Below are positions 12-64,000 of a DNA stretch of 64,000 bases, piece after piece. Where the stretch lies: positions 416,001 to 480,000 of the forward strand of contig CAVSDR010000003.1 in the NCBI GenBank assembly GCA_963726745.1, read 5' to 3'. The DNA comes from an uncultured Verrucomicrobiae bacterium (GTDB lineage Bacteria; Verrucomicrobiota; Verrucomicrobiia; Chthoniobacterales; UBA10450). How positions within the stretch are numbered: position 1 is the first letter of the stretch; every line of letters starts with the position of its first letter. The notes beneath the pieces were generated by a model. That model was not told the DNA's origin. It made no database searches and saw only the letters and a program-made list of their open reading frames with translations. A program made the translations under genes and the position numbers.

Positions 12-755
12 ATGCAGCTCCTCCAAGGCTACTGGGAAAAGCAGGGACGCATCCTGCTTCTGCTCGACCCGGCCGCGAAGACGCCCCGGCTGGCGGATTT
101 TGTCGGCCGCCTCGGCGCGCGCGTGGATGACGACCGCCTGATGGCCTTGATGAAAACTGGCATCCAGGAAGTCGCCCGGGTGCGCGATGTCATCGGCCGT
201 TTCCTCCCCGGGAGCCCGATTACGAAACGGCTCGCGGAAGTGCAGGCGCCGTTTCTCGGAGGAACTTCCTCGCTGACCCTGGAACCGGCGCAACAGCTGC
301 GCGCCCGCAACCTTCGCCTCACGCCATTGATCGAGGCAGCCAAAGGTTATTGGGGCGAGATGGATTACAACGCCACGGACGACGCGCTCCTGCAATTTAC
401 CGAAGGCCGCGACAAGGATGCGCCGTTGCAATTCGGCGTCGCGATCGAGCAGGGCGGCAGCGCCGATGATCGGGTGCAGACCAATTCCGCGCGGTTGGTC
501 GTGGTCGCGAACTCGACCTTCGTCCAGGATAACGCGCTTACCCAGGACCAGCAGGGCCTCGACTTTGTTTCCGGGAGCATTAATTGGCTGCTGAATCGCG
601 AGCAGCTCATCGGGATCGCGCCAAAAGTGCCCACGACTTTGACTTTTAACCTCGACGAGAACGCGCTCCGGAATCTTCGCTGGGTCATCCTGGTGATCTT
701 GCCGCTTGTGCCTGCGCTCCTGGGCGGGCTGGTCTGGTGGCAGCGGCGCGCCTAA
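12..755 (+). CDS. GldG-like / ABC-type uncharacterised transport auxiliary protein, C-terminal part (runs off left edge)
   Basis: ARLVVVANSTF...LDFVSGSINWLLNREQLIGIAPK plus one C-terminal TM helix; followed by a DUF4340 gene, the usual neighbour; frame is open back to the window start. Confidence 0.7.
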   Translation: MQLLQGYWEKQGRILLLLDPAAKTPRLADFVGRLGARVDDDRLMALMKTGIQEVARVRDVIGRFLPGSPITKRLAEVQAPFLGGTSSLTLEPAQQLRARNLRLTPLIEAAKGYWGEMDYNATDDALLQFTEGRDKDAPLQFGVAIEQGGSADDRVQTNSARLVVVANSTFVQDNALTQDQQGLDFVSGSINWLLNREQLIGIAPKVPTTLTFNLDENALRNLRWVILVILPLVPALLGGLVWWQRRA

Positions 756-767
756 CGAAGGCTACGC

Positions 768-2623
768 ATGAAAAGCAAAACCACGCTGCTGCTCCTCGTG
801 GCCGCGATCGGCCTCGCGGTTTGGATCAAGTTTTACGAAAGCAAACGGCCGAACACCGAGGAAACCCAGCGCCGCGCTGGCACTGTCTTGAAATTCGAGC
901 CCGATCAGCTGGAGGGCATCGTGATCCAAAATGGCGACGACAAGATCGAGCTGCGCAAGACCGACGGGAAATGGCGTGTGGAAGCGCCGATCAAGGACCA
1001 GGCCGATGCAAGTGCGGTCGGGACTTTAGTCAGCGACCTGGAGAGTTGGGAAAAATCCGAAACCATCACCGCCGCGGAGATCGAGGCGGATAAAACCCGC
1101 CTCGCCGAGTACCGATCTCGCAAAGCCAAAGCTGCGCCTGAAATTGCTCGGGAAGGAGATGCCGCCGGAAATCTTTTTCGGGAAGGACGCGGCACTCGAG
1201 AAACGAATGTATGTCCGTTTCGAGAACTCCCGCGAGACCTACCTGGTGCGGAATAACGTGCGCGATGACATCGCGAAAAAGCCGGAGGATTTTCGCGATC
1301 GCAAGCTTACCGAATGGAGCAGCGCCCAGGTGCAGCGCGTGATTCTGCAGACGCCCGCCGGCGAAATGGAGTTGACCAAGAATGCGGACGCTTGGGAGAT
1401 CGTGAAGCCACTCCGCGCCCGCGCCGATTCCCAGAAAGTGAACGACCTGCTCGCGCAGGTCACGAGCGCGCGGATCGAGCAATTTGTGGCCGACGACCGC
1501 GGCGATCTCCAGCGTTATGGACTCGCCGAGCCGCGGGGTGCGATCACGCTTTTTGAGGCCGGGAAGAAAGACGGGCAGCTGCTGCAGATCGGCGGCGCGG
1601 CCGAAAAAGAACAGGTCTACGTGCGCTTTGCCCCGCGCAGTTTCGTCTATGCGCTGCCGAAAAAAATCGAGGAGCTCCTCCAGATCACGCCGGCGGCGTT
1701 ACGCGATCGCCACCTTGCGCGCCTTGACCCAAATAATCTCGACCGCCTGACGATCGACGCGCCCGGACAGGGCAAAACCGTGCTCGCGCGGAAAGAGCAA
1801 AACTGGGTGATCGCGAACGCTAACAACCAGCCGGCAAATTCTGCCGAGGTCACGCGTTTACTCGAAACGCTCCGCAATCAGGAGGTCACGCGTTTCGTGG
1901 CCGACACCGCCTCCGACCTCGCGAAATACGGCCTCGATCGCCCACAGCGGACGATCACTTTCAGTTCCTTCGCTTCCGAAAACACCGCGGAGTCGCCCGC
2001 AGGCGAGCATCCTTTTGCCACGCTCTCGTTCGGGCGCGCGGAAAACGGCGAAGTCTTCGCGCGGGTCAACGAAGAGCCGTTCATTGTCGCGGTGCCGGAA
2101 GGGTTGCTTGCGCAGATTCCGGCGTCGCCGAGCGCGTGGCAGGAGCTGGCCATCTTCCACTTCAAGCCGGAAGAACTGCATCGCGTAAGCGTGATGAAAG
2201 ACCGGGAAGACCGTGCTTACCCGCGGGGCCGACGGGCAATGGACGGCGGCGACGGCGGGCGCAACGCTGCACTCGATGCACGTGGAATCGTTCGTCAATG
2301 CGCTGGCTAAATTGCGCGCAGTCCGGTGGCTTGCGGAGGCGCCGCCGGCGGAGGCTTTCGCCCAGCCGCAGCTCACGATCACTTTCACGACCACGCCGGA
2401 CGACAAAGCGCTGTCTAAATTAATCATCGGCGGACCAACGCCGAACGGAATGTGGTTCGCCCGCGTCGAGGGCCGCGAGGGGACTTTCGTGCTCAGCAAT
2501 CCGGACTACAACGCGCTGAATCTGCCGCTCCTGACCGCGCGACGGCCGCTGAGCCAAGCCCGAGCCGTCGCCGCTGCAGGCCCACGTTTTCGGCGTGATA
2601 GAGCGTGGCGATGCCGCCAGTGA
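768..2623 (+). CDS. DUF4340 domain protein (apparent frameshifts near 1115 and 2210; 3' end uncertain)
   Basis: N-terminal anchor and repeated W.I..P....AD...V..LL / L..YGL..P...IT motifs spread over ORFs 768-1256, 1144-2310 and 2213-2623. Confidence 0.7.
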
Positions 2624-3635: not shown

Positions 3636-3701
3636 GGCGCAAAGGGAGCGACCGTTCCCGGGCCATTTTTACGCTTGTAATAAAATGTGAGCCTCACCAG
3701 C

Positions 3702-7478: not shown

Positions 7479-8354
7479 TCAACCCCGGCGGCGGGCGCGT
7501 TCTTCCAGCTGCCGCGCCTGGCGCGCTTTGCCTAACGAGCGCAGGAGATCGGCGTAATTCGAGACGACAATTTGGTAGTCGCCCGGGATCGCGCCCGGCC
7601 GGCTTTCCCAGATCGCGAGCGAATCGCGATAGAGCTCGGCCGCGCGTTCGCTGTCGCCGGAGGAATGGTAAACCACCGCCAGATTGCACTTCGATTGCGC
7701 GATGTCGGGATGCTCCGGCGGGAGCGCCTGCTCGCGGATCGCCAGCGCCCGCCGATGCAGCGTCTCGGCCTCGGCCAGCCGACCTTCGTTCGTGTAATAG
7801 ACGGCCAGATTGTTCAGCACCGAGGCGACGTCGGGGTGGGCGTGGCCGAGCTGTTTCTCGTAAAGTGCGAGCGCCTGCAGGTAGCACGGCTCCGCTTCCT
7901 CCGGACGGCTCGAGCGCCGGTGGATCAAGGCGATGTTGTTCAACATCGTCCCGAGGTCGCCATGCGGCAGTTCCTCGAGCTGCATCCCGGCCTCGACCGC
8001 TTCGGTGTAGAACCGGAGCGCTTCCTCCGCCTCGCCCAGGTTGTCGGCTAAAAATCCCAGCCGCCGCGCGGAGCGGTAGAGCGCGCGTCGATCCAGCGGC
8101 TGAGCACGCGCAAGCAGCTCGTGGGCCTGGAGCAGAAAGGGCCGCGCGGCCGTGCGATCGCCGGCTTGGTCGTGGAGTTGCCCAAGCTTTTCGAGACTCA
8201 ACGCCTGCGCCGGGTGCCCTGCGGGGAAAGCGCGCGTGGCCAACTCCGCTGCGGTCTCGGCCACGCGGATCGCTTCCGCCAAGCGGCCTCCACCGCGCAA
8301 GGTGTCGAGCTTGTCGTGGAGAAGCGCCCAGAGCTTTTCGTCGCCCTTGGCCAC
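7479..8354 (-). CDS. Tetratricopeptide repeat protein (kinesin-light-chain-like TPRs)
   Basis: Repeated HPDVASVLNNLAVYY...EAETLHRRALAIRE. Confidence 0.85.
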   Translation of the reverse strand: MAKGDEKLWALLHDKLDTLRGGGRLAEAIRVAETAAELATRAFPAGHPAQALSLEKLGQLHDQAGDRTAARPFLLQAHELLARAQPLDRRALYRSARRLGFLADNLGEAEEALRFYTEAVEAGMQLEELPHGDLGTMLNNIALIHRRSSRPEEAEPCYLQALALYEKQLGHAHPDVASVLNNLAVYYTNEGRLAEAETLHRRALAIREQALPPEHPDIAQSKCNLAVVYHSSGDSERAAELYRDSLAIWESRPGAIPGDYQIVVSNYADLLRSLGKARQARQLEERARRRG

Positions 8355-11140: not shown

Positions 11141-11173
11141 CGGAAGCCAGGCAGAATTTCGCCGCCTTTTGGC

Positions 11174-12499
11174 CTAACGAGTGACGAGGTGCGCCAGGAA
11201 GAGTGCCGCCAGGATCCACGTGGTGAGCGAAACCTCGCGGCGGCGTCCCGTGCCGAGCATGAGCGCGGCGTAGACCACGAAGCCGATCGCGAGCCCTTCG
11301 CTGATGCTGAAGGTCAGCGGCATGAGCACGATCGTGAGGACGGAGGCGGCCGCCTTTACGAAGTCGCTCAAGTCGAGCGCGCGGATGTTTTGCATCATGA
11401 GCAAGCCAACCACGACCAGCGCCGGCGCCGTCGCTTCCGCCGGGATGATGCGGAGGAGCGGATGGAGGAAAAGCGCGGCGAGGAAACAGCTGGCCACAAC
11501 CAGCGCGGTCAGTCCGGTGCGCCCGCCTTCCTCCGCGCCGGCGGCCGACTCGATGTAGCTCGTCACGGTCGAAGTGCCTAACGAGGAGCCGACCATGGCC
11601 GCAACCGCGTCCGCCTTGAGCGCGCGGCCGAGCCCGGGCAGTTCGCCGTCTGCTTTGAGCAAGCCGAGGCGCGAAGTGACGCCGATGAGCGTGCCCATGT
11701 TGTCGAAGAGATCGACGAAGAGAAACGCAAGGATGAGCGGGAGCGATTGCGCCGGGTGCGCCAGGAGATAGCCGAAGTCGAGCTGGAGGAACGTGGGCGC
11801 GAGCGAGGCGGGCAGCGCGACGAGGCGCTCCGGCATCTTCGTCAGGCGAAGCCCGTCCGCGCCGGGAATGAAGAGACCGATCGCAGTCAGCGCGAGAACG
11901 GAGAGAATGATCGCGCCTTTGACCCGCCGATAATGCAGCGCGGCGGCGAGCACGATCCCGCCAAGGACGAGGAGCACGCGTGCTTCGCCCAGCTTCCCGG
12001 CGGTCACGAGCGTCGCCGGATTGGCCACGATGAGGCCGCCTTTCTGCAGACCGATGAAGGCGATGAACAAGCCCACGCCGCAGGAGATCGCGATCTTCAG
12101 CTCATGCGGAATCGCCTCGATGATGCGCTGGCGCGCGCCGGTTGCGGTGAGCAGGAGAAAGCCGAGTCCGCTGCAAAAGACGAGCGCGAGCGCCGCCGGC
12201 CAGGGCACGCCCATCGCGCCGCAAATGGTGAAGGCGAAGAAGGCGTTCAAGCCCATCCCGGGCGCGAGCGCGATCGGCCAGTTGGTCAGGAGCGCGAAGA
12301 CCGCGGTCATGATCGCGGAGGCGAGCGCGGTCGCAGTCACGACCGCGCCGAAATCCATCCCGGTGGTCGCGAGGATCTGCGGATTGACCGCGAGGATGTA
12401 AGCCATCGCCGCGAAGGTCGTCAGCCCCGCGGTCACCTCGGTGCGCACCGTCGTCCCGTGCGCGCGCAGTTGAAAGAAGCGCTCGAGCCGGGCCGTCAT
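11174..12499 (-). CDS. NCS2/AzgA-family purine permease
   Basis: TEVTAGLTTFAAMAYILAVNP, ALAPGMGLNAFF, TSYIESAAG, GGRTGLT. Confidence 0.92.
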   Translation of the reverse strand: MTARLERFFQLRAHGTTVRTEVTAGLTTFAAMAYILAVNPQILATTGMDFGAVVTATALASAIMTAVFALLTNWPIALAPGMGLNAFFAFTICGAMGVPWPAALALVFCSGLGFLLLTATGARQRIIEAIPHELKIAISCGVGLFIAFIGLQKGGLIVANPATLVTAGKLGEARVLLVLGGIVLAAALHYRRVKGAIILSVLALTAIGLFIPGADGLRLTKMPERLVALPASLAPTFLQLDFGYLLAHPAQSLPLILAFLFVDLFDNMGTLIGVTSRLGLLKADGELPGLGRALKADAVAAMVGSSLGTSTVTSYIESAAGAEEGGRTGLTALVVASCFLAALFLHPLLRIIPAEATAPALVVVGLLMMQNIRALDLSDFVKAAASVLTIVLMPLTFSISEGLAIGFVVYAALMLGTGRRREVSLTTWILAALFLAHLVTR

Positions 12500-12514
12500 G
12501 GTTGATCTTGCTGC

Positions 12515-13787
<1,273 letters not shown>

Positions 13788-13849: not shown

Positions 13850-14918
13850 GTGGAACAGCTCAACCTCCTCGGGGTTGCCCTTGGCCTCGCGGCCCTCGCC
13901 GGGATCAATCTTTACCTGACGGTTTTCGTCACCGGCCTCGCGGTCCAGCAACATTGGATCGTCCTCGCGCCGCAATATCAGTCGCTCGAGATCCTGGCCA
14001 ACCCGGTGATCATCGCGGTCGCCGGCGTCTGCTATTTCCTGGAGTTTTTTGCCGACAAGATCCCGTGGATCGATACCGCCTGGGACGCGGTGCACACGGT
14101 CATCCGGCCGATCGGTGGCGCGCTCCTCGCGATCCAAGTGCTGGGGCATTCCAGCCCCACGTTCGATCTTCTCGTCTTGCTGCTTGCCGGGGGCACCAGC
14201 CTGGCGACGCACACCGCGAAAGCCTCCTCGCGATTGTTGGTGAATGCTTCGCCGGAACCGTTCTCGAACATCGGCGTGAGCTTGCTGGAAGACGCCGCGG
14301 TCTTCGGCGGGCTGGCCTTGATCCATCTCAATCCCCTCGCGGCCCTGGCGATTTTTGTGCTCGCGATGGCGACGTTCCTTTACTTCGCGCCCAAAATTCT
14401 CCGGGCGATGAAGGTGCGGCTTTGGCTGATTTTCAAGAAGCTCAATGGACCCGCGGGATCCGATGGTCCGCGCGCTTTGCCGACTGCGCTCCCCTCGAAT
14501 CTCGCGAGCGGTTTTCGCGCGTGATAACATCCTTGGCGAAACCATCGCCTGGGCTGTCCCATGCATCAGCGGCCGCGGCCGGCGGATCGCGCCCAATCTC
14601 TTCGGCGCGCTCGTGGCTACGCACGAAGAGCCGCGCAAAATGACTTTCGTGACCGCGAAAGGCCGCGGCTTTGCGCAGGCGATCGATCTCGATGGCTCCA
14701 CGGTCACGCGCGAGCCGAAATTTCTTTCCGAGAACCTGGTCGTCTTCCCCGCTGCCGGGAAGGGCCCGAAGTATCTCTTCGTTTTTCCGCGCTCCAGCGG
14801 CGTGCTCGTGGAGGAGATCGTGCAGTCAATCCAGGCGCGCGCCAGCGAACCGGCACCTGTCGTTAGGCCAGACCTGGACGCAGCGGCCTACCGCGGGGAA
14901 GAGACGCTTACGACCTAG
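13850..14918 (+). CDS. DUF4126 membrane protein (apparent frameshift near 14520)
   Basis: LAALAGINLYLTV, LEFFADKIPWIDTAWDAVHTVIRP, SPEPFSNIGVSLLED. Confidence 0.8.
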
Positions 14919-14930
14919 CCGGGCCTGGCC

Positions 14931-16293
14931 GTGTCGGATCTCGACCGCTACGAAGAACTGCGCGCTCGGGCGCAGGTGCGCGAGCGCGTTCTTTTCCGCA
15001 GCGCGCGCACCCCGGATGAACTGGAACTGCAAGCGCGCTGGTTTGCCGGCGACTTCGGACGCCGGCTTCCAGTCGACTTGCGGCCGGGCGATCGAGGTGG
15101 TGCAATTCGGCACCTGGAATCGCGAAGCCGGACCCGATTTCCACAGCGCCGCGATCCGCGTCGATGGCGGCGAAGCACAACGTGGCAGCATCGAGTTCGA
15201 TCTGGCCGACAAAAACTGGGAAGCCCACGGGCACGCGAGCAATCCCGCGTTCAACGACACCGTGCTGCATGTCTTCGTGCACGCGAGCGGCCCGACCTTT
15301 TTCACTCGCACGGAGGCGCATCGCCAGGTCCTCCAGGTGCGGGTGGACCCAGAGAAATTAGCCGACGCTTTCACCGGAAATATTCCGCTGGCCCGGCCCG
15401 GCCGCTGTCAGGCGCCGTTGCAGGATTTGCCGGAGGCACGCGTGCGCGGCGTGATCGAGGCGGCGGCCCGTTTTCGCCTCCAGCGAAAGGCGGCACGGCT
15501 GCACGCGATGATCGAAGCGCACGGCGAAGAGGAAGCGCTCTTCCAGGAGCTGGCCGCCGCGCTCGGCTACAAGGCGAACAAGTTGCCGTTTACCCTCCTC
15601 GCGCAACGCCTGCCGCTCGCGCTCCTGCGCGCGCAAAAGGAAAACGCGGAGGCGCTCCTTTTTGGCGTGGCCGGATTTCTCCAGGCCGCGGATTTGTCGG
15701 TCTACAGCGAGGAAACCCGCGGCTACGTGCGCGCGCTCTGGGAAGATTGGTGGCCGCAGCGGGACGCGCTCAGCCGGTTGATCCTGCCGGCCCATCTCTG
15801 GCGGCTCGGCGGCGCGCGACCGCTGAATCATCCGCAACGCCGCCTGGCGGCGCTGGCCGCGATCGTCCGCGCCTGGCCGCGGCTCTTGCGTTCGTTAGGC
15901 GAAACTGCCAGCGCCCGAGCCTTCTTCCGCGAGCTGGCGCATCCCTACTGGGAGCGACATTACACCCTGACCTCGAAGCCAGGCACCCGTGCGCTGGCGC
16001 TGGTGGGTGAATCCCGCGTGGCCGAGATCCTGGCGAACGTCCTCTTTCCCTTCCACCTGGCGCGCGGCACCGATGTCTGGGCGGAATACGAAAAACTCCC
16101 CGCGCGCCTAACGAATCGTCGCCTCGAGACCGGCGCCGCCCGCCTCTTCGCGGGCGACCCGCGCCGCCCGCAATTTCTCCGGACGGTGGCGCAGCAGCAG
16201 GGCCTGCTGCAGATCTACGAGGACTTTTGCCTGCAGGATAATAGCGACTGCGCGCACTGCCCTTTCCCGGAGCAAATGCAGAAATGGGTTTGA
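14931..16293 (+). CDS. DUF2851 family protein (apparent frameshift near 15070)
   Basis: ELELQARWFAG then FGTWNREAGPDF, WEAHGH..NPAFNDTVLHV, ALGYKANK, RPLNHPQRRLA, QQGLLQIYEDFC. Confidence 0.8.
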
Positions 16294-26226: not shown

Positions 26227-26228
26227 TC

Positions 26229-29116
<2,888 letters not shown>

Positions 29117-29476: not shown

Positions 29477-29558
29477 CTCCTAACAACAGCCTAACGAATC
29501 AGAACGGCCGGATGTGCAAGCGTCCGGTTGTTTTGTTGACAACGACCGTCGTGAACGA

Positions 29559-32874: not shown

Positions 32875-32875
32875 G

Positions 32876-44726: not shown

Positions 44727-44747
44727 GCGAAAGCGAAGGATCGCTCG

Positions 44748-45242
44748 TTAGGAAACCGGCTTGATGCTCTTGACGATTTTGCCGACTTCTTCCTGGTGCT
44801 TCTTCTCGTCTTCCGAGGAGACCCAGTAGGTCAGGACCATGACCTTGTCCTTGAGCGGGACGAAAGTGATGCTGATGGAAGCAGGGCCATCCTCGTCCTT
44901 GCCCTGGAAGATCATCTCGGAGGCTTCGAGGCCGTTGATCTCGAACTTCTGTTCCTTCTTCGACTTTTCGTCGAGCTCGACCTTGTGCTCCTTGAGCATC
45001 GCGAAGGTGTCGTCGATCTCGGCGTTCATCCCCTTCTCGCTGCTCACCACCACCGCGGAAATGTAGACCGCGCCGTCCGCGCTCGTGCCGCCGATGCCGT
45101 TCTCGACGTCTTCCTGGTCCCAATCTTCCGGGAGCGTGATCGACGCCGCGGCCGAATCTTCGTCCGGCAGTTTGTAGGTTTTCGCGTCGGCCGAGACAAA
45201 AGCGGCCGTGAGGAGCAATACAGGAAGCAAGGACTTGAGCAT
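44748..45242 (-). CDS. Secreted acidic hypothetical protein
   Basis: Signal peptide MLKSLLPVLLLTAAFVSADA; strong codon bias. Confidence 0.75.
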   Translation of the reverse strand: MLKSLLPVLLLTAAFVSADAKTYKLPDEDSAAASITLPEDWDQEDVENGIGGTSADGAVYISAVVVSSEKGMNAEIDDTFAMLKEHKVELDEKSKKEQKFEINGLEASEMIFQGKDEDGPASISITFVPLKDKVMVLTYWVSSEDEKKHQEEVGKIVKSIKPVS

Positions 45243-48764: not shown

Positions 48765-49940
48765 ATGACTACGCTCTTCGTCTTCGCGCTTGCGCTCTTC
48801 GCCACCATCCTCGTCTCCGCGCTGGCCGATCGCACCGTCCTCTCGGTCGCGGTTCTCTTTCTCCTCGCCGGCTTTCTTGCCGGCCCAGGCGTGCTCGGTT
48901 TCATCGGCAACAATCCCTCCGAGCCGATGGTGCAAAGCATCGCCATGTTTGCCCTTTGCAGCGTCCTTTTTACCGACGGGATGCGTGCCGGGATCGACGA
49001 TCTCCGCCGCGCCTGGCGCCTCCCGGGGCGCGCGCTCCTCCTGGGCCTGCCGCTCACGCTCCTCGCCACCGCCGGCCTCGGCTACCTGCTGGCCGGTTTG
49101 TCCTGGATGGTCGCGCTCCTCGTGGGCGCGATCCTTTCGCCCACCGATCCGGTTTTCGCGTCCGCGATCGTCGGCCGCAAGGACGTGCCCGAGCGCCTCC
49201 GCTTCCTGCTCAATGTCGAGAGCGGAGTGAACGATGGGCTCGCCCTCCCGATCGTGGTCGTGCTCCTGTCGATCATCGGGCACCAGGAGTTTTCCTTCCC
49301 GGAGCTCGGCGGCGAGTTGCTCCTTGGCGTTGCCATTGGCGTGATGCTCCCGCTGCTCGCCTGCTGGCTCGAGCGCCGGCGGATCTTCGAAGTCTCAAAG
49401 ACTTACGAGGCGCTGTTTGTTCTCTCGATCGGCCTCCTGGTCCTGACCCTGGCCCATCTCACCCACGGCAACGTCTACCTCGCGACCTTCGCCGCCGGCG
49501 TCACCATCGCGAGCGTGCGCCCCGACCTGCGCGATCACTTCCACGAGTTCGGCGAGCTCATCGCGGAACTCCTGAAGCTCGGCGCCTTGCTCCTCTTCGG
49601 GGCCATGATCACGCCTTCCTACTTCATCGGCATCGGCCTGGGCGGCTTTGTCTTCGCGGTCCTCGCGCTCATCCTCGCCCGCCCGGCGGGGCTCCTGCTT
49701 TCGCTCATCGGCAGCCAGCTCGACTGGCGGGAGCGCGTGACCGCCGCCTGGTTTGGGCCGAAAGGTTTCGCCTCCGTGATTTACGCCCTGCTCCTCTTTC
49801 AATATTACGTGCCCGATGCCGAGCGCGTCTTCCATCTCATCGCGGTCGTCATCACCGGCTCGATGATCGCGCATGCCTCCACCGATGTGCTCGTGGCCCG
49901 CTGGTTCGTTCGCGCGCGCGAGCGCGAGGCCGCTGCCTAA
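48765..49940 (+). CDS. CPA1/NhaP-type cation:proton antiporter
   Basis: LSPTDP, NVESGVNDG, WFGPKG; about 12 TM helices. Confidence 0.9.
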   Translation: MTTLFVFALALFATILVSALADRTVLSVAVLFLLAGFLAGPGVLGFIGNNPSEPMVQSIAMFALCSVLFTDGMRAGIDDLRRAWRLPGRALLLGLPLTLLATAGLGYLLAGLSWMVALLVGAILSPTDPVFASAIVGRKDVPERLRFLLNVESGVNDGLALPIVVVLLSIIGHQEFSFPELGGELLLGVAIGVMLPLLACWLERRRIFEVSKTYEALFVLSIGLLVLTLAHLTHGNVYLATFAAGVTIASVRPDLRDHFHEFGELIAELLKLGALLLFGAMITPSYFIGIGLGGFVFAVLALILARPAGLLLSLIGSQLDWRERVTAAWFGPKGFASVIYALLLFQYYVPDAERVFHLIAVVITGSMIAHASTDVLVARWFVRAREREAAA

Positions 49941-49951
49941 CGAGTCGCTGT

Positions 49952-50838: not shown

Positions 50839-51544
50839 TTAGCCGAGGATCGGAACTTTCCGGAGCGTGCCGGTTTCCAGCGCCTCATACTGCGGCGCGG
50901 CCTTTGCCTCCTCGCGCGTGATTGTGAGGTAGGCGGTCGATTTTTCAGAGCTGAGCTCGCGCACTTGCGCTGGGGTCAACAGCACTTTCTTGCCTGGCCA
51001 CCAATCGCGCGTGTCCACAATCAGGGAAGCAACCGACCAATCGCGATCGTCGACTAACAAGTCCTCGACGTGACCGATGCCGCCATCCGTCGCCTCCACG
51101 GAATAGCCAGCAAGTTCACTCGCACTGCGCAGGTGCTGATTACGCATCGGTTCCGGGGAGTTCGGCCGTTTCCGGCGGTAACGGAAGGTCGGCATGCAGC
51201 CCAATCCACGGCGAGAGACTACCCCAGTAAGGATCAAGCGCGTAGTAATCGTGATAGGAGATTTCCTGCTGCTGCGAGACCGGTTGCTGCGTGGTCACTT
51301 CGGGTGCGTCGCGCACCTTATCCTTCGTTAGGTCCACTGCGAGCGCTTGCTGCTCGTCGCTGACCGCGCCGAGCGAGGCCGGCGGAATCAGAACCTCGCG
51401 CCCGAAGAGCCAGGCTCCGGTATTTACCACCACGTAGCGCAGGACCCACTCCCTCGAGTCGAGGTAAATATCGCGCACCTTGCCGATGTCGCCATCGCGA
51501 GCTGCGAGCGCGTAACCTTTCAGTGAGTTAACTGTGTGGAGCAT
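50839..51544 (-). CDS. Two-domain PRC-barrel protein (apparent frameshift near 51200)
   Basis: LKGYALAARDGDIGKV, YVVVNTGAWLFGREVLI; HLRSASELAGYSVEATDGGIGHV, WWPGKKVLL. Confidence 0.85.
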
Positions 51545-54540: not shown

Positions 54541-55395
54541 CTAGCGGCGCGGTGCGGGCGTGCTCTTGGCGCGAATCAGGCGGCCATCTGGCGCGCGACG
54601 GATCCGCTGCGCTTTCGCCGCCGCCTTCTGTTTCACCTCGACGTATTTGAGACGCGCAGTCGCGTCAGCGTCGTTCGGCTTCAACTGCAGAATCTTGCGA
54701 AAATCCTCCGCGGCCGGGCCGTATTGATTGGTTAGACGATAAGCCTGGCCCCGGCGGCGATAGGCTTCCGGATCCTTCGGACGCAACTCGATGATGCGGG
54801 TGAAGTCGGCGATCGCGAGATCGTTCTTGCCCAGTTTGCGGTAGACATACCCGCGCTGCTCGAGCGCGCCGACGTCCTTCTTGTTCGCGCCGACGACCTT
54901 GGTGTAATCGTCCGCCGCCTGCTGCCATTGCTGCTTCCGCAAGTGGGCGTAGGCACGATAACGCAGCGCCGCCGGGTCCTTTGAGCCAAGCTCGATCGCC
55001 TTCGTGAGATCGACAATCGCCGCGTCGAACTTGTTCTGCTGCATCTCCAGCTGGCCTTTGTCGAGGCGGGCCTGCGCATCCTTGGGATTAAACTCGATCA
55101 CCTTTTCGTAATCGGCCAGCGCCTCCTTCGGCTGATTGTTCAACTTATAGGCCAGCGCGCGATTGGTGTAGTTCTTGGGGTCGTTAGGCTGCGCCTTGAT
55201 CGCGAGGGTGAACTCCTTCACCGCCTCGGCGTATTTCTTCTGCCGGGCAAATTTTACGCCTTTGTTGGTGTGGCCGCCGGGATCGCCCGCGATGGCAGAA
55301 CGGCGGCTGCGACGTGCGCCCTCCGCGGAGGGCACTGCGAGGAAGGGGAAGACGAGCGCGGCCAGAAGCAACAGATGGAGGGAGAATTTTTTCAT
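54541..55395 (-). CDS. Secreted TPR protein
   Basis: Signal peptide and repeated A..DFT.AI.L.PKD..AY..RG. Confidence 0.85.
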   Translation of the reverse strand: MKKFSLHLLLLAALVFPFLAVPSAEGARRSRRSAIAGDPGGHTNKGVKFARQKKYAEAVKEFTLAIKAQPNDPKNYTNRALAYKLNNQPKEALADYEKVIEFNPKDAQARLDKGQLEMQQNKFDAAIVDLTKAIELGSKDPAALRYRAYAHLRKQQWQQAADDYTKVVGANKKDVGALEQRGYVYRKLGKNDLAIADFTRIIELRPKDPEAYRRRGQAYRLTNQYGPAAEDFRKILQLKPNDADATARLKYVEVKQKAAAKAQRIRRAPDGRLIRAKSTPAPRR

Positions 55396-55499
55396 AAGCA
55401 AAGTTCCTGCGAACAAAATGCAGCCAGCGGCAGCGACGTCAAACAGCCGACCCTTTCACGCGGCCGGTGGCGGACTGACGGGAGCGCGCTGCCTAACGA

Positions 55500-57266
55500 G
55501 TGATTCCGCTTGCGCCGTTGGGCCCGCGGCTTTCCAGTCAGGATCGAGTGGCTACGCTTTCGGCCGAGTTCCATCGCCTGCACGATAAAGCGCGCCCGGT
55601 CATTGGCACTCTCCTGTATGGCCTGGTCGCGAGCCTGGCCGCGGTCGCCTTCCAACTAGCCGTCAATTGGCTCTACGCGCTCTGCTACACCACGCCGGCC
55701 GCGGGAAGTTTCTGGCGTTTTTGCTGGCTCACGCTCGCGGTCATCGTCTCCACATCGCTCCTCGCTGGTTGGCTCCTGCATGCCTTTTGCCCGGAGGCCG
55801 CCGGCAGCGGCATCCCGCAAGTAAAGCTGCGCTTTTGGAAGGAATTTGGACACTCCCCGCGCCGGATTGCCTGGATCAAATTCCTCGGCGGTGTGATCAC
55901 GCTCGGCGGCGGGCAAAGTCTCGGGCGCGAAGGCCCGACGGTGCAGATCGGGAGCAATCTCGCCTCCAGCCTGGCCGGCCTGCTCGGGGTGACAAAGCAG
56001 AACCGTCGCGCGGCCAGCGCTGCCGGGGCCGCCGCCGGCTTAGCCGCCGCTTTCAACGCGCCCTTGGCGGCGGTCGCGTTCGTCCTTGAGGAGATCATCG
56101 GCGACCTGAACAGCCGCTCGTTAGGCAGCGTTCTCCTGGCTTCGGTCATCGGCGCGTTTGTGGTCCATGCCGCGATCGGCGCGCAGCCGGCCTTTGTCCT
56201 TCCAGCGCTGGCGGAGCCAACCTGGCGGGCGTACCTGCTGATGCCGATCGCGGCTGCGTTGGCCACGCTCATCGGCGTTCTCTTTCAACGGAGCACGCTC
56301 GGGTTGCGCGCGCGTTGCCGGAAGGCGCAGCGGTTTCCGCGCTGGCTGCAACCATTAGCCGGTGGGCTCACCACTTGGGTCATCGGGATCAGCATCTTCG
56401 CCTACACCGGGCGGCTGGGGGTTTTTGCCCTCGGCTACGACGATCTTTCCGATGCGCTCCAACACGGCATGGCCTGGAAGCTCGCGCTCCTCCTACTCGC
56501 CGGAAAGCTCCTGGCCACGATCGCGAGTTACGGCTTCGGCGGCTGCGGCGGAATTTTTTCGCCGAATCTTTTCTTCGGCGCGATGTGCGGCCTGGTAGTC
56601 GCTGGCCTCGGTGGACAATTCTTTGCGCTCAATCGCTCGGACGATCTCCTGGTGACGATCGGCGCGATGAGTGCCTGCCTGGGCGCGGTGGTGCAGGCGC
56701 CGGTGACCGCAATTTTGATCATCTTCGAGATGACGCACCAGTTCGCGGTGGTGCCAGGGCTGATGCTCGCGGGATTGGTCAGCCAGGCGCTCGCGCGTTC
56801 GCTTTCGAGCACGAATTTCTACGACGAAGTGCTCCTGCAAGACGGCCATCAAATCGAACACCTGGTGCCACCGCGCGATCTCCGGAGCTGGCAAAATCTC
56901 CCGATCTCGGCGATCGCGAATTTCCAGCCGGTAGCGATTAGAGACAGCAACTTCACCGCGCTGCGGGAACTGCTCGCGGCGCATCCTTACCGGCATTTTC
57001 CCCTGCTCGAAAATGAGCGCGTGCAGGGCATGGCCACGCGGCAGGAGATCGAGATGGCGATTGTGGAAGCGCGGCCGCTCCGGCTCGAGCCGGCCTTTCC
57101 CTGCCGGCCGGGTGCATCGATCCGCGAATCGCAGGCCGCCTTGATCGAATCGCCCACGCACACGCTGGTGCTGACGGATGGTCCCGAGGGAAAATTGCTC
57201 GCGGTGGTGACGCTGCACGATCTCCTGCGCGCGCAGGTGACGATGAGCGAACGCGAGCGTCCCTGA
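55500..57266 (+). CDS. CLC chloride channel/antiporter with CBS domains
   Basis: GSGIP, GREGPTVQIG, AAAFNAPL, GGIFSP. Confidence 0.92.
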   Translation: MIPLAPLGPRLSSQDRVATLSAEFHRLHDKARPVIGTLLYGLVASLAAVAFQLAVNWLYALCYTTPAAGSFWRFCWLTLAVIVSTSLLAGWLLHAFCPEAAGSGIPQVKLRFWKEFGHSPRRIAWIKFLGGVITLGGGQSLGREGPTVQIGSNLASSLAGLLGVTKQNRRAASAAGAAAGLAAAFNAPLAAVAFVLEEIIGDLNSRSLGSVLLASVIGAFVVHAAIGAQPAFVLPALAEPTWRAYLLMPIAAALATLIGVLFQRSTLGLRARCRKAQRFPRWLQPLAGGLTTWVIGISIFAYTGRLGVFALGYDDLSDALQHGMAWKLALLLLAGKLLATIASYGFGGCGGIFSPNLFFGAMCGLVVAGLGGQFFALNRSDDLLVTIGAMSACLGAVVQAPVTAILIIFEMTHQFAVVPGLMLAGLVSQALARSLSSTNFYDEVLLQDGHQIEHLVPPRDLRSWQNLPISAIANFQPVAIRDSNFTALRELLAAHPYRHFPLLENERVQGMATRQEIEMAIVEARPLRLEPAFPCRPGASIRESQAALIESPTHTLVLTDGPEGKLLAVVTLHDLLRAQVTMSERERP

Positions 57267-57309: not shown

Positions 57310-58005
57310 ATGAGCGACCCGTTGCATTACCTGGCCGTGGCCAGCCTGATCGTGGGCGTCATCTCTGCGGCGATCATCGCGATCGACCTCTTCGCGGGAC
57401 ACCGGCAGCACATGTGGATCATGAACCTGGTCTGGCCGATCACCGGGCTCTATGCGGGCCCCTTCGCGGTCTGGGGTTACTTCGCCGCCGGCCGGCTCTC
57501 GACCGAGCGCGCGCACCGCGCGGCGCAGGCGGAGAACGATCGACCACCGGGAAAAAAGAAGCCGTTCTGGCAGATGGTCGCGCTCGGCGTGACCCATTGC
57601 GGGAGCGGCTGCACCGTGGCCGACATCGTGGGCGAATGGGGGTTGTTCCTTTTCCCGGTGACGCTCTTCGGAATGAAAATGTTCGGCGCCTGGGTGGTCG
57701 ATTATTTGCTCGCGCTCTTGATCGGGATTTTCTTCCAATACTTCACGATCGCGCCCATGCGCGACCTCTCGTTAGGCAAAGGCCTCCTGGCGGCGGCCAA
57801 GGCGGACTTCTTTTCCCTGACCGCCTGGCAGGTGGGGATGTATGGCTGGATGGCGATCGCAGTTTTCGTGTTCTTCGGCCACGAGATCCCGAAAACCGAC
57901 CCGCTCTTCTGGTTCATGATGCAAATCGCAATGCTCATCGGCTTCGCCACCGCCTACCCGGTGAACTGGTGGCTCTTGCGCGCAGGGATCAAAGAGAAGA
58001 TGTGA
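57310..58005 (+). CDS. DUF4396 membrane protein
   Basis: HCGSGCTVADI, FQYFTIAPM, AWQVGMYGWM, YPVNWWLL..GIKEKM. Confidence 0.85.
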   Translation: MSDPLHYLAVASLIVGVISAAIIAIDLFAGHRQHMWIMNLVWPITGLYAGPFAVWGYFAAGRLSTERAHRAAQAENDRPPGKKKPFWQMVALGVTHCGSGCTVADIVGEWGLFLFPVTLFGMKMFGAWVVDYLLALLIGIFFQYFTIAPMRDLSLGKGLLAAAKADFFSLTAWQVGMYGWMAIAVFVFFGHEIPKTDPLFWFMMQIAMLIGFATAYPVNWWLLRAGIKEKM

Positions 58006-59832: not shown

Positions 59833-60539
59833 GCGCGGATCGCTTTGTCATCGTCAACGCGGATGACTTTGGCCTAACGAGCGGAATCAATCGCGGCATC
59901 ATCGAGGCGCATGAACGGGGCGTGGTCACCAGCGCAAGCTTGATGGTGCGCGCGCCCGCCGCTGGCGAGGCGGCAGACTACGCCCGCGCCCACCCGCGCT
60001 TCAGCCTCGGCTGGCATGTGGAACTCTCGGAATGGCGATGCCGCGCCGGCCACTGGGAGCTGGCCTACGCGATCGTCGACGTGGCCGATGCTGCGGCGGT
60101 TACCGCGGAGTGCGAGCGGCAACTCGAGCGCTTTCGGGAATTAGCCGGCAACCTGCCCACGCACATCGATTCGCACCAGCATGTGCATTTGCGCGAGCCG
60201 GTGCGCACGGTGCTGGCAGGCTTCGCGACGCGGCTGAAGGTGCCTTTGCGCGCCTGCAGTGAAAGTGTCGGCTACCGGGGCGGCTTCTATGGCCAAACCG
60301 GGGAGGGCGAGCCCCTGCCAGAGGGCATTTCGCCGGCGGCGTTTGCCGCTTTGCTGGAGGCGCTTCCGCCAGGCTGGACCGAGCTCGGGTGCCACCCGGG
60401 ATTTTCCGGGGAGGACTTGGATTCAGTCTATCGAAAGGAGCGCGACGAGGAAGTGCGCGCGCTCTGCAGCGACGAGGTGTGGAAAAGCATCGAGCGCAGC
60501 CGGGTGCAGCTGCGCTCGTTTGCTGATTTCAACCCGTAA
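59829..60539 (+). CDS. ChbG/HpnK (YdjC) family carbohydrate deacetylase
   Basis: IVNADDFGL, VTSASLMV, THIDSHQHVH, TELGCHPG. Confidence 0.9.
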   Translation: MSADRFVIVNADDFGLTSGINRGIIEAHERGVVTSASLMVRAPAAGEAADYARAHPRFSLGWHVELSEWRCRAGHWELAYAIVDVADAAAVTAECERQLERFRELAGNLPTHIDSHQHVHLREPVRTVLAGFATRLKVPLRACSESVGYRGGFYGQTGEGEPLPEGISPAAFAALLEALPPGWTELGCHPGFSGEDLDSVYRKERDEEVRALCSDEVWKSIERSRVQLRSFADFNP

Positions 60540-61254: not shown

Positions 61255-61360
61255 CATTTCCGAAGGCGCCAAAACGCTGTCTAAAATCGGGGTGACACGG
61301 CTGCTTTCACCCTGGTTGCGAAGGGATTAGCGCGTCGGATTACAATCAGGAAAAGTTTGC

Positions 61361-62428
61361 CTAACGAATGGTAATTTGGCGCGGCCTGGCCTCATTTCGA
61401 CCGCGAGCGTGCTTCGAATTGCGACCAGCAGGCTCATCCTGCGCCATCTGCCGCAGATAGCGGGCTAAGGTGGAGCGTGAGATGCCCAAAAGCTTGGCCG
61501 CGAGGCGCTGGTTCTGCTCGCAGCTCGCATAGACAAACTGCACATGCTTCCGGAGGGCGGACGAAAGCTTCAAGTCGGGCCCCGGACCGTTCTCGGAGTT
61601 CGAGGGTTTGCGCTCGCCGGGCGGAGCCTCCGCCTGGTGCGCATGCGGAAGATCGGGCGAGAAGCTGACGTTATCCGGCAGGATGACTTCGCCATCGCAG
61701 AAGAGAACCATCGTGCGGACGGTGTGGTTCAGCTCGCGCAGGTTCCCGCGCCAGCCGTGCGCGAGCAGCCGAGCCATCGCTTCCGGGTGGATCGCGGTGA
61801 TCTCCTTTCCTTCGCGCGCAGCGGCCGCTTTCAATTCGCCGGCAATCAACGCCGGGAGCTCCTCCAGGCGTTCGCGCAGGGGCGGAATGAGCAACGTCAG
61901 TCCGTTCAGCCGATGAAACAGGTCCTCGCGAAATTTCCCCTGCGCTACGCGTTCCTGCAGCGAGCAATTAGCCGCGCAGATGATCCGCACATCGCAGTGC
62001 AACATCCGCTCGGAGCCGAGCCGCTCGAATTCGCCATACTCGAGCGCGCGCAGGATTTTCACCTGTGCGAGCGCGCTCATTTCCGAGATCTCGTCGAGAA
62101 ACAGCGTCCCTTCATGCGCGAGCTCGAATTTTCCCTTCACCGTCTGCTGCGCGCCGGTGAAAGCGCCGCGCTCGTGCCCAAAGAGCTGGCTCTCGAGCAG
62201 GGTGTCGCTCATTGCGGAGGCGTTAAAGGAAACGAAGGGCCCGCCGCCGCGCAGCGAGGAGTTGTGAATCGCATGCGCCAGGAGCGTTTTCCCGGTGCCG
62301 GTCTCGCCCAGCAAGACCACCGGCACGTCTGACTTGCAGGCGAGTGCGGCCAAACGCAGGCAGCGCGCCATGGCCTCATTCGTCGTCGTGATGTCTTCGA
62401 GCTTGAGGTCAGAGAGGACAGGCTGCAT
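61361..62428 (-). CDS. Sigma-54-dependent activator (AAA+ and HTH, no N-terminal sensor domain)
   Basis: GETGTGKT, GAFTGA, LFLDEI, WRGNLREL, AAKLLGISRSTL. Confidence 0.92.
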   Translation of the reverse strand: MQPVLSDLKLEDITTTNEAMARCLRLAALACKSDVPVVLLGETGTGKTLLAHAIHNSSLRGGGPFVSFNASAMSDTLLESQLFGHERGAFTGAQQTVKGKFELAHEGTLFLDEISEMSALAQVKILRALEYGEFERLGSERMLHCDVRIICAANCSLQERVAQGKFREDLFHRLNGLTLLIPPLRERLEELPALIAGELKAAAAREGKEITAIHPEAMARLLAHGWRGNLRELNHTVRTMVLFCDGEVILPDNVSFSPDLPHAHQAEAPPGERKPSNSENGPGPDLKLSSALRKHVQFVYASCEQNQRLAAKLLGISRSTLARYLRQMAQDEPAGRNSKHARGRNEARPRQITIR

Positions 62429-62446: not shown

Positions 62447-63625
62447 CTACTCGCGGGCGTTCTCCCGCAATTGCCGCACTGGCTCGAAGACGTATTCAAT
62501 CAATGTCCTGCGGCCCACGATGATCCGTGCCGCGCCCCGCATGCCGACGCGCAGGTTGAGCGCCTGCGTGCGGCCTTTCAGCTCCTCCACCGACGCGAGG
62601 GCGACAAAGCGCGGCCCCTCGGGTGTGGTGATAGCCGACGGGCTGATCCAATCGAGCGTGGCGTTAACCGTGCCGTAGCGCTGGTAAGGGAACGCCTCCA
62701 GAAAGAGCCGCGTTTTCTGTCCCGCCTTCAGCTTGGGCAAGCCAGTTTCCGAAAGCAGTAGACGCGCGCGCGGTTGCGCATCGAGCCGGGCGAGCTGGCA
62801 AAGCTCCTGGCCATTCTGAACCACGCTGCCGGCGCTTTTTTGCGCCACCGAAATCACGACCGCATCGTAGGGCGCACGCAGGGAAACGAGATTCTGCTGC
62901 GAGTTCTCCAGCTGCGCCTTCAAGGACCCGAGCCGATAGCCGAGCTTCTCGATCTCGGAAACGTCCTGCCCGCGCTGGCGCCCATGCTCCAGCTCCATCC
63001 GCTCGCGTTCCAGCTTCACCTGCTGGAGCGTCCGCTCGGCCACGCTCAAGTCTTTCTCGGAGGCCGCGAGGTCGAGGCGCAACCGTAAAAGTTCGACCTT
63101 CGAGATGCCGCCACTGCTGGAGAGTTTATCCATCCGTTCGACCAGCTCGCGATTGGCTGCGCTATGCCGCTCGCGAAACTTCACCTCGCTCTCGGCCTGC
63201 GCGATTTCCTGCTCCTTGATCTGCGCTTGCGCCTCGTAGGCCGAGTCGGATTTCTTCAAGCCGGCCTCGCGCTCGCGCAGGTCCTCGCTCAACGTCCGGA
63301 AACTCGTGTCGAGCGTGCGGATTTCCTCGGAGCGCAGGACAAAGAGTTCGCTGCCTTCCTTGACCGTGTCGCCCTCGCTCACGGCCACGCGATTCACCAC
63401 CGCCGCGTAGGGCGATTGCACCGGGTCCGCGCCATCGCGCGGCACGAGCACAAACGGACAGGTGACCGTCTCCGGCAGGTGCACAAAAATCGAGGCGACG
63501 AGCGCAATTCCGAAGAAGGCGATGATCAACCAGCCGGTGCTGCGCACAATCCACGGCGGCGGATCCTGCGGGAGCATTTCCGACTCGTTGTCGATCGAGG
63601 GGCGGGTGGCGAGGAGCGCGGCCAT
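62447..63625 (-). CDS. HlyD-family membrane fusion protein
   Basis: TM helix, VSEGDTVKEG, coiled coil, LRAPYDAVV, AFPYQRYGTVNATLDWISP, LRVGM. Confidence 0.9.
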   Translation of the reverse strand: MAALLATRPSIDNESEMLPQDPPPWIVRSTGWLIIAFFGIALVASIFVHLPETVTCPFVLVPRDGADPVQSPYAAVVNRVAVSEGDTVKEGSELFVLRSEEIRTLDTSFRTLSEDLREREAGLKKSDSAYEAQAQIKEQEIAQAESEVKFRERHSAANRELVERMDKLSSSGGISKVELLRLRLDLAASEKDLSVAERTLQQVKLERERMELEHGRQRGQDVSEIEKLGYRLGSLKAQLENSQQNLVSLRAPYDAVVISVAQKSAGSVVQNGQELCQLARLDAQPRARLLLSETGLPKLKAGQKTRLFLEAFPYQRYGTVNATLDWISPSAITTPEGPRFVALASVEELKGRTQALNLRVGMRGAARIIVGRRTLIEYVFEPVRQLRENARE

Positions 63626-63637
63626 GGAGTCGTTAGG

Positions 63638-64000
63638 CTAAATCCCCAGCTGCTGGCTGGAGAGGTAAAAATAGAGGCCGCGCTGCGCCATCAATTCGTC
63701 GTGGTTCCCCACTTCCGCGACCTTGCCCTTCTCGAGAACCACGATCGAGTCCGCCTCGCGAATCGTGCTCAAGCGATGCGCGATCACGATCGTCGTCCGG
63801 CCGGCCATCAGACGGCTCAAGTTATCCTGGATGGCGCGCTCGCTTTCAGTGTCGAGCGCGCTCGTCGCCTCGTCGAAAATCAGCACCGGCGGGTTGTTAT
63901 AGATCGCGCGCGCGATCGCGATGCGCTGCTTTTGGCCGCCGGAAAGCGAAAGGCCGCTCTCGCCGATCTTGGTCTCGTAGCCCATCGGCAGGCGCATGAT
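63638..64000 (-). CDS. Type I secretion/peptide-export ABC transporter, C-terminal ATPase part (runs off right edge)
   Basis: [45 protein letters not shown]. Confidence 0.88.

Follow-up and report, generated by a model that had tools for sequence, protein, structure and literature searches.

A short non-palindromic word repeated across an uncultured Verrucomicrobiota family matches the left end of its integron attC sites and is a candidate self-DNA tag

What would write the same short word into a bacterial chromosome hundreds of times, on both strands, within genes and between them? The question is raised by a stretch of 64,000 nucleotides (the window: positions 416,001 to 480,000 of contig CAVSDR010000003.1, GenBank assembly GCA_963726745.1) from an uncultured Verrucomicrobiae bacterium of the order Chthoniobacterales (GTDB lineage ending in UBA10450). 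An initial annotation, made from the letters of the window, had noted an over-represented 9-mer, GCCTAACGA, and had proposed a lineage-specific DNA uptake sequence or a site for a nucleoid, repair or modification protein. We find that this word and its ten-letter extension GCCTAACGAG are spread over the whole genome and over many genomes of its family, and that the integron attC sites of this family have the same ten letters as their left end. Our analysis points, tentatively, to a self-DNA tag kept by a drive acting at the DNA level, most likely biased DNA uptake, a reading to which we give a probability of roughly 0.45.

In the window, the 9-mer occurs in 32 exact copies (17 on the plus strand and 15 on the minus strand), against a mean of 0.31 and a maximum of 2 in dinucleotide-preserving shuffles, none of the 100 reaching 32. 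The 8-mer CCTAACGA occurs 36 times (18 plus, 18 minus), against 0.89 expected. Both counts reproduce those of the initial annotation, which had also placed the first and last copies correctly (750 and 63638) and was about right in expecting one or two chance 8-mers per 64 kb. Allowing up to one mismatch to the 9-mer yields 49 matches in the window versus 11.7 expected; nine of the 11 one-mismatch places that had been listed are found within one base, while 25267 and 29479 are not one-mismatch sites of the 9-mer. The assembly that contains the window (G000 in our numbering, the window being G000:C3:416001-480000) has 3,406,779 bases in 7 contigs, is 94.7% complete and has a GC content of 64%. 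Over these 3.41 Mb, the 9-mer has 1,312 copies (681 plus, 631 minus), at 0.32-0.53 per kb on all 7 contigs, and is the second commonest 9-mer after CGCGCGCGC, while the extension GCCTAACGAG, with 820 copies, is the top-ranked 10-mer. Markov models predict 15.9 (order 1) or 19.7 (order 3) copies of the 9-mer and 6.1 (order 3) of the 10-mer, i.e. an enrichment of about 65- to 130-fold. Copies in coding sequence, counted in 2,781 genes from a crude codon-usage caller of our own rather than a curated annotation, number 948, versus 22.1 +/- 3.9 when synonymous codons are shuffled within each gene and 5.8 +/- 1.9 when codon order is shuffled. The enrichment that had been suspected from a single window thus survives Markov and codon-aware nulls alike, and is therefore real, independent of codon usage and not confined to one contig; it also recurs in many independently assembled relatives.

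The word has a core, CGTTAGGC (the reverse complement of GCCTAACG), and GCCTAACGAG is non-palindromic, as it differs from its own reverse complement. Beyond the nine fixed letters, the flanks show a preference for G at +9 (62%), T at +10 (43%) and A or T at +13 (70%), and for pyrimidines immediately upstream. As they carry almost no information past four bases, the word is a short one and not a piece of a longer repeat. Its commonest one-off variant, GGCTAACGA, has 240 copies, and no other single-mismatch variant exceeds this number. Positions 3-9 (CTAACGA) are the tightest. When the last eight letters are fixed, the first two are GC in 820 cases, GG in 166, CC in 99, GA in 81, GT in 54 and AC in 30.

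Strand polarity with replication, which the initial annotation had seen as a pointer to a Chi-like or chromosome-segregation role, is not apparent: of the copies that can be assigned by the local GC skew, which is itself weak in this genome, 561 (48%) fall on the G-rich strand and 607 on the C-rich one (Fisher p = 0.45); the remaining 144, where the skew is close to zero, were excluded. Neighbouring copies avoid each other at short range (11 gaps below 100 bp versus 50 expected), and gaps above 10 kb number 38 versus 26 expected under random placement. Densities are 0.33 per kb in coding sequence, 0.39 in spacers between tandem genes, 0.35 in divergent and 0.57 in convergent spacers. With a density that is nearly flat across contexts, and no excess in divergent spacers over coding sequence, a promoter or regulatory role is unlikely, and we rejected it.

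Genes accommodate the word in all four of its stop-free frames: 442 genic copies are read as Ser-Leu-Gly (antisense), 220 as Leu-Thr, 213 as Pro-Asn-Glu and 68 as Val-Arg. Another 222 copies are intergenic by our calls, and 147 sit at gene ends. The word takes a sizeable share of some codons, holding 15.8% of the TTA codons of G000, 17.3% of its CTA codons and 9.5% of its AGG codons. In the two frames that contain a stop, it provides the terminating codon of 171 of the 2,781 called genes (96 TAA, 75 TAG), and in the window seven of the 32 copies do so.

Comparison with orthologues indicates how copies arise. At position 28141 of the window, in the aconitase gene, G000 has TCG TTA GGC (Ser-Leu-Gly), versus mostly CCG ATC/CTC GGC (Pro-Ile/Leu-Gly) in the 46 orthologues listed; a single one of these shares the word (it comes from a word-rich genome in a different genus), and another is one letter off. 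At position 25458, in the DUF456 gene, the leucine codon is CTA in G000, and the 12 commonest of the 18 orthologue matches listed have other Leu codons, mostly CTG or CTC and once TTA. These comparisons show that copies are made by point substitutions, overriding codon preference and a conserved proline, and not by insertions. The closest named relative (about 75% nucleotide identity) carries 15 copies in 22 kb; 10 of them can be aligned, and two of these 10 correspond to a copy in G000. Judging from these alignments, the positions of the word turn over, so that no particular site is needed.

Some regions lack the word. The three longest word-free stretches, to which our island annotation is confined (C7:49-95 kb, C6:414-438 kb and C3:3-25 kb), have a GC content of 0.585-0.63, versus 0.64 for the genome, and encode sugar aminotransferases, glycosyltransferases, Wzy/Wzz-type proteins and exosortases. 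By their predicted gene content, they are surface-polysaccharide, O-antigen and exosortase islands, a kind of DNA often exchanged horizontally.

How far does the word extend beyond this genome? Its recurrence in related Chthoniobacterales, which the initial annotation had left to be checked, was found across the family. Our survey covers 121 genomes of the GTDB family, from 30 genera. Three unpublished genomes enter our tallies, G035 in this survey and G001 and G008 in the count of the 10-mer; no conclusion depends on them, and all statements stand when they are dropped. Copy numbers of the 9-mer span 13 to 4,336 among the 121 genomes, with both strands balanced in all. By hand count, it reaches at least five times the count of a reversed-word control in 59 of the 121 genomes, by a control that is generous (59 copies in G000 versus 20 by Markov), and at least 1,000 copies in 29. 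Outside the family, the 10-mer has 0-14 copies in 12 genomes from other families of the order, and no enrichment was found in 298 other Verrucomicrobiota genomes, where the 9-mer has at most 18 copies. Nor was the word present in the loci examined in Chthoniobacter, Opitutaceae and Akkermansia. Named relatives, identified through the aconitase gene, are metagenome-assembled genomes (MAGs) of uncultured soil Chthoniobacterales, some of whose records are labelled Candidatus Udaeobacter.

De novo k-mer scans of family members revealed a second, unrelated word, carried by sister genera. In a 288-kb sample of G058, which lacks the first word, AAGATCGACA has 70 copies versus 1.9 expected, and its nine-letter core AGATCGACA has 90 versus 5.1. 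Across the 121 genomes, AGATCGACA shows no strand preference; its highest count is 4,941 copies in 2.9 Mb, and 18 genomes have 1,000 copies or more (hand count). In G000 it is not enriched (60 versus 34 expected). The second word occurs in all six frames, and 99 of the 429 sampled copies are intergenic. Similar scans of G002 (254 kb) and of G139 (188 kb, from a word-poor genus) detected no alternative word and no one-letter dialect: the G002 sample retains a weak enrichment of the first word (11 versus 0.69 expected), and that of G139 has neither word and no third one. Longer repeats are also over-represented in the G002 sample, with words such as AAGTAGGAAG, CGGACGGCAA and GGAATGCGGAA, which may be parts of dispersed repeat elements. 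In a quick single-gene tree of aconitase, the only tree used, word types cluster by clade. The first word appears in two clades, and the second-word clades include rows labelled Udaeobacter. Neither word is marked for any of the 15 rows (12 outgroup, 3 basal) that fall outside the word-bearing clade of 35 rows.

The first word has a second identity, which the initial annotation had missed along with the second word. Integron attC sites are imperfect hairpins of 57-141 nt with paired R and L boxes, located at the 3' end of cassettes. The only genome outside the family with a cluster of the 10-mer (G022) contains classical attC arrays, with imperfect hairpins of 102-154 bp that start with GCCTAACGAG and end with GGTTAGGC. 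G000 itself carries, outside the window, an array at C6:736573-744893 with at least 12 near-uniform attC sites of 103-124 bp, of the form RYCTAACGAG-AAC-AAGAT[G/C]AGCGAC ... GTTCGCT[C/G]CATCGCNTGGTTAGRY. Our codon-based caller called almost no genes inside this array. As no integron integrase was found anywhere in G000 (the best matches, at 80 and 71 bits versus a cut-off of 265, are Xer-like), the array looks like a CALIN (a cluster of attC sites lacking an integrase). A covariance model built from 28 sites, with at most 32 candidates scored per genome, retrieved attC sites of the same type in 116 of the 121 family genomes, word-poor ones included, and their left arm does not differ between genomes of the various word types. 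Among 74 left ends listed from 30 loci, 24 read ATCTAACGAG, 23 GCCTAACGAG, 15 ACCTAACGAG and 6 GTCTAACGAG. The letters GCCTAAC / GTTAGGC of the word fit the R box consensus, RYYYAAC / GTTRRRY in the available excerpt of PMC5027507. Read in this way from the aligned sites, the word corresponds to the R box of the family's attC together with the three spacer bases that follow it, and represents one of the four common spellings of this end. This one attC type is preserved near letter-for-letter across 30 genera, a homogeneity that points to a cassette pool common to the family or to an integrase that has closely co-evolved with the sites.

The word copies in the rest of the genome are another matter. 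Only six of the 1,312 lie inside attC sites, all of them in the C6:736573-744893 array, and the others have no L box, no partner arm and no attC-like flanks. We therefore rejected the idea that they are decayed attC sites, from which they also differ in their spectrum of first letters (GC/GG/CC/GA versus RY in attC). This difference suggests that the reader of the word has a specificity of its own, approximately G-N-CTAACGAG, that overlaps the invariant part of attC. The commonest attC spelling, ATCTAACGAG, occurs seven times in G000, the same number as in the attC array. As for the second word, a derivation from the attC L box was rejected too: AAGATCGACA equals AAGATC(AGC)GAC only with a three-base gap, and second-word-rich genomes keep AAGAT[G/C]AGCGAC, so its likeness to this attC block is probably due to chance.

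The machinery that biased uptake would require is partly in evidence. Among the genes that the initial annotation had singled out, G000 has ComEC (849-aa frame), and it also has DprA, three secretins and ten T2SSE-family ATPases. Among these ATPases, a PilT is above the curated PilT/PilU cut-off, and two of PilB/GspE type have best scores just under the PilB and GspE equivalog cut-offs. PilC/GspF, GspG, GspH/I/K-like minor pilins, three PilA-like pilins and a Verrucomicrobia-specific prepilin cassette are also present, and 16 prepilin N-terminal motifs are above cut-off. Transformation-type genes are widespread in bacteria without known competence. At G000:C3:1032975-1034733, prepilin-like genes have sub-threshold matches to proteins C and D of the NCBIfam 'Verru_Chthon cassette', which are lineage-specific and pilin-like. 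In the second-word-rich genome G034, the ComEC match (G034:C9:459447-460251) is in two pieces with an in-frame TGA, and may be a broken gene or a sequencing error.

According to the reading that we prefer, a non-palindromic duplex word would be written into the chromosome by point substitutions wherever genes tolerate it, and its high density would be kept by a process acting on DNA rather than on proteins or RNA. A receptor of the type IV pilus/ComEC pathway, at the surface or in the periplasm, would prefer word-bearing DNA. Conspecific fragments bearing the word would be imported and recombined more often, so that the word would accumulate by molecular drive or by selection for self-DNA exchange. 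All the sequence-level properties that the initial annotation proposed to check are those expected of an uptake sequence; no receptor was found. More precisely, as far as the sequence tells, the facts of the word match those of uptake-enhancing sequences with three exceptions: terminator pairs are missing, sister genera carry a second word unrelated to the first, and the word coincides with an attC end.

These exceptions belong to a series of observations that weigh against biased uptake. Only two opposite-strand pairs within 60 bp are found among 1,305 neighbour gaps, unlike in known uptake sequences, and the terminator-pair arrangement of the latter is thus missing. The density spread is 15-fold within the genus of the window (160 to 2,425 copies), with 160 in G002 and about 2,300-2,400 in G081, G013 and G133. 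Both words are dense in one genus: G052 has 1,803 copies of the first and 4,941 of the second (0.65 and 1.63 per kb in a 263-kb sample, together about 2% of its DNA), and we know of no precedent, among described uptake sequences, for two unrelated dense words that coexist. The match with the attC end hints at a cause beyond plain self-recognition. ComEC is present in 114 of the 121 genomes, including all 11 of a genus almost without the word; competence genes thus do not track the word, and we rejected them as discriminators of its density. The sole above-cut-off match to ComEA is a 30-residue half of a helix-hairpin-helix domain, in a 95-aa open reading frame (ORF) overlapping another gene. 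To our knowledge, moreover, the family has no cultured member.

The search for a receptor adds to this side of the balance. In G000, the best match to the ComP_DUS domain reaches 21.9 bits versus a cut-off of 27.3, and falls on a prepilin gene of the window (16329-16952, +). The structure predicted for this prepilin (predicted local distance difference test score, pLDDT, of 86.9, with 34 sequences in the alignment) retrieved no PDB match at E <= 0.001; the weak rows listed are GspG-type pseudopilins and pilin N-terminal helices, and ComP is not among them. In sequence searches, the same prepilin has 5,230 matches at E <= 0.001 among 8,000 scored, and two relatives have a precomputed ComP_DUS match. 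The GspH-like minor pilin of G000, which we take to be an analogue of FimT, is 53-61% identical to its counterparts in five genomes with the first word, the second, both or neither, and its GspK-like neighbour, used as a control, is 58-63% identical in the same five. No extra GspH-like copy is found where both words are dense. As its identity does not covary with the words, this minor pilin was rejected as the receptor, although it is the analogue of ComN/PpdA, the minor pilin predicted to be the receptor in Pasteurellaceae (PMC12616744, as far as the available excerpt goes).

Several of these points fit a chromosome-bound reader unrelated to import, i.e. some nucleoid, repair, modification or defence factor that would require numerous, evenly distributed copies on self DNA, the word being maintained through direct selection or repair bias. 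The situation would be akin to that of the cyanobacterial HIP1. The absence of polarity, the use of all frames, the absence from islands, the spacing and the restriction to one family would suit a DNA-level self mark of any kind; density is not tracked by the competence genes, the spread within the genus looks as if a dispensable factor had come and gone, and two words can coexist. We nevertheless consider such a reader somewhat unlikely: no candidate protein was found, we are aware of no methyltransferase that recognises a non-palindromic site of 9-10 bases specified at every position, a repair bias so sharp (1,312 exact copies versus at most 240 of any one-off variant) is not known for non-palindromes, and word positions turn over. 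A far weaker case can be made for a Chi-like hotspot that would halt a helicase-nuclease on self DNA. Although a non-palindromic word, over-represented on self DNA and absent from acquired islands, would suit this role, it lacks the GC-skew polarity; RecC was not found in the 94.7%-complete G000, nor was RecBCD or AddAB seen there, apart from one small PDDEXK_1 protein (470-aa frame). Chi is enriched a few-fold in E. coli, far below the enrichment of the word, and altogether this role is very improbable. Finally, there is virtually no chance that the signal is spurious, be it a codon or peptide by-product, a dispersed mobile repeat or an assembly artefact. One frame does dominate (Ser-Leu-Gly, in 442 of 943 coding copies), but codon-aware nulls give 22 and 6 copies versus 948, four frames are used, 222 copies are intergenic, the uninformative flanks leave no room for a longer repeat, orthologues show substitutions instead of insertions, and the same pattern is seen in many assemblies from different studies.

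As the word is the conserved left end of attC, its reader may be tied to cassette traffic, and two further readings build on this. In one of them, the integron machinery itself would read the word as a duplex mimic of the R box (GCCTAAC paired with GTTAGGC), and the copies would be integrase binding sites, attG-like landing pads or a by-product. In its favor, GCCTAACGAG is the left attC end both in the G000 array and in arrays of another family of the order, the R box consensus is respected, and the family is rich in attC sites (116 of 121 genomes) and in integron integrases (above cut-off in 78 of 121). Integrases, moreover, insert cassettes at duplex attG sites with a GWT core, according to the available part of bioRxiv 10.1101/2022.09.11.507474. 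However, integrase presence does not track word density: the enzyme was not found in G000, nor in G073 (the genome densest in the word, with 4,336 copies) or G081, incomplete assemblies weakening single absences, and G049, with 13 copies of the word, has an intact integrase, which also occurs in three genomes of a genus almost devoid of the word. Integrase was therefore rejected as the driver and is probably not the reader. In addition, attC ends vary as RY (AT 24, GC 23, AC 15, GT 6 of 74) while genome copies do not, the flanks of the latter are unlike attC, and landing pads in conserved genes would be harmful. This first version is improbable. In the other, which we find about as doubtful, an import receptor or another gatekeeper would be tuned to cassette ends, so that attC-bearing DNA would be taken in preferentially and integrons would be fed by transformation. 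The same import bias would, by molecular drive, fill chromosomes with the word. Unrelated phyla could converge on it because attC ends are common across soil bacteria, and AAGATCGACA would mark a second, later specificity. A bridge between integrons and transformation is made plausible by the attG work just cited together with the report that, in Vibrio cholerae, single-stranded DNA entering by transformation is a source of cassettes for the chromosomal integrons (PMC12614218, available excerpt).

How does the word compare with described systems? Uptake sequences are 9-10 nt long, occur in hundreds to thousands of copies within and between genes, avoid frames with stops, are depleted in recently acquired genes and have dialects, and such sequence-tagged recognition of self DNA is described for only two proteobacterial families (bioRxiv 10.1101/2025.10.24.684340, in the portion available). 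The word resembles the DNA uptake sequence (DUS) of Neisseriaceae, read by the minor pilin ComP, in being short, non-palindromic, on both strands, in genes and spacers, sparing of stop frames, depleted in acquired DNA, restricted to a lineage and accompanied by transformation genes. It differs from DUS in its phylum and unrelated sequence, in the near lack of inverted pairs and terminators, in the lack of a ComP-like domain above cut-off, in its identity with an attC end, and in that the variant of sister genera is an unrelated word instead of a dialect differing by one to three letters. With the uptake signal sequence (USS) of Pasteurellaceae, it shares a nine-letter core with weaker, one-sided flank preferences (+9 G, +10 T, +13 A/T), a mostly coding location that forces the choice of amino acids and codons, spaced copies and a density that varies between species; unlike in the USS case, the family's GspH/PpdA-like minor pilin does not vary with the word.

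Other comparisons are less close. With integron attC, the word shares its first seven letters, a canonical R box, and, over ten letters, the conserved left end; unlike attC or attG sites, the genome copies are lone duplex words devoid of hairpin, L box and flanks, and made by substitution in conserved genes. The cyanobacterial motif HIP1 (GCGATCGC) is also hyper-abundant, phylogenetically widespread, very uneven in density and of no known reader, but it is palindromic and the word is not. Chi, the FtsK-orienting polar sequences (KOPS) and the architecture-imparting sequences (AIMS) are likewise non-palindromic and over-represented on the resident chromosome, but they are skewed with the direction of replication whereas the word is unskewed. 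NTS/Ssn-related motifs are hairpin repeats of about 30 bp that cluster near genes, tied to the GIY-YIG nuclease gene ssnA, which modulate transformation in Neisseria (PMC11893778, available excerpt); the word, with its 10 bp, has no hairpin and no conserved flanks, and is evenly dispersed.

Literature searches retrieved no description of the word, of uptake sequences in Verrucomicrobia or of competence in Udaeobacter; among the matches listed, the motif strings were met only as primer-like matches in unrelated papers. A search for uptake sequences beyond the two known families likewise yielded no description of the word, and one combining integrons and uptake sequences returned only the Ssn-related work. 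The identity of the word with the left end of the family's attC is new here. It offers a testable bridge between transformation and cassette traffic, a link that has been shown experimentally in Vibrio (PMC12614218, same excerpt). Should the word prove to be an uptake tag, selective transformation would be practised by one of the most abundant uncultured soil lineages, with consequences for gene flow, for the cohesion of species and for what becomes of extracellular DNA in soil, and a verified tag could help to make the bacteria of this family genetically tractable. Both words are in any case strong lineage markers, of use for binning and for spotting acquired islands in MAGs.

The 32 copies of the window illustrate the variety of placements (strands are given in brackets, and gene boundaries follow our own calls). 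Those read as Ser-Leu(TTA)-Gly are at 7530..7538 (+), in a TPR gene (7479-8354, -); 11576..11584 (+), in a permease gene (11174-12499, -); 15892..15900 (-), in a DUF2851 gene (15043-16293, +); 18408..18416 (+), in a class A penicillin-binding protein gene (17940-20120, -); 39110..39118 (+), in a called gene (38957-39358, -); 47006..47014 (-), in a gene at 45404-47608 (+); 56118..56126 (-), in a CLC channel gene (55548-57266, +); and 57769..57777 (-), in a DUF4396 gene (57310-58005, +). Two more lie in the aconitase gene: 28141..28149 (-), the TCG TTA GGC site discussed above, and 26553..26561 (-), in its N-terminal part (frame of ORF 25980-28796), which our caller treated as intergenic. The Leu(CTA)-Thr frame is used at 16106..16114 (+), in the same DUF2851 gene, at 25458..25466 (-), in the DUF456 gene (25147-25638, -), and at 59872..59880 (+), in a YdjC gene (59829-60539, +). 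Pro-Asn-Glu is encoded at 23614..23622 (-), in a LytB/IspH gene (23190-24065, -), at 48647..48655 (-), in a pyridoxal-phosphate (PLP) enzyme gene (47578-48726, -), and at 55181..55189 (-), in a second TPR gene (54541-55395, -). Val-Arg(AGG) is found at 14860..14868 (-), in a called gene (14613-14918, +), and at 28901..28909 (-), at the C-terminus of the aconitase gene.

Stop codons are furnished by the copy at 750..758 (+), whose TAA (753-755) ends a gene at 755; by 11172..11180 (+), whose reverse complement provides the TAG of the permease gene; by 12513..12521 (+), with the TAG of a called gene (12515-12829, -); by 32868..32876 (-), with the TAG (32872-32874) of a called gene (32455-32874, +); by 36214..36222 (-), with the TAG (36218-36220) of a gene at 35633-36220 (+); by 49935..49943 (+), with the TAA (49938-49940) of a Na/H exchanger gene (48765-49940, +); and by 61359..61367 (+), with the TAG of a gene at 61361-62428 (-). 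The intergenic copies are at 13041..13049, 13383..13391, 22379..22387, 29489..29497, 37429..37437 and 55491..55499 (all +), and at 63630..63638 (-), five bases past the start of a gene at 62447-63625 (-). Four places match the 8-mer CCTAACGA only: the 9-mer is TCCTAACGA at 35581..35588 (-), 37921..37928 (+) and 44745..44752 (-), and ACCTAACGA at 51325..51332 (-).

The aconitase gene itself (25980-28989, +) is split between two frames near 26,985-27,000: the frame of ORF 25980-28796 covers positions 4-172 of the Pfam Aconitase model, while positions 179-463 are found in the frame that starts at 27001. The split is either a real frameshift or an assembly error. In the genome of G000 as a whole, several 12- to 14-mers reach about 140 copies owing to a tandem array of the hexamer (GCCAAC)n, and two 14-mers reach about 55 owing to a CCGACT-type repeat.

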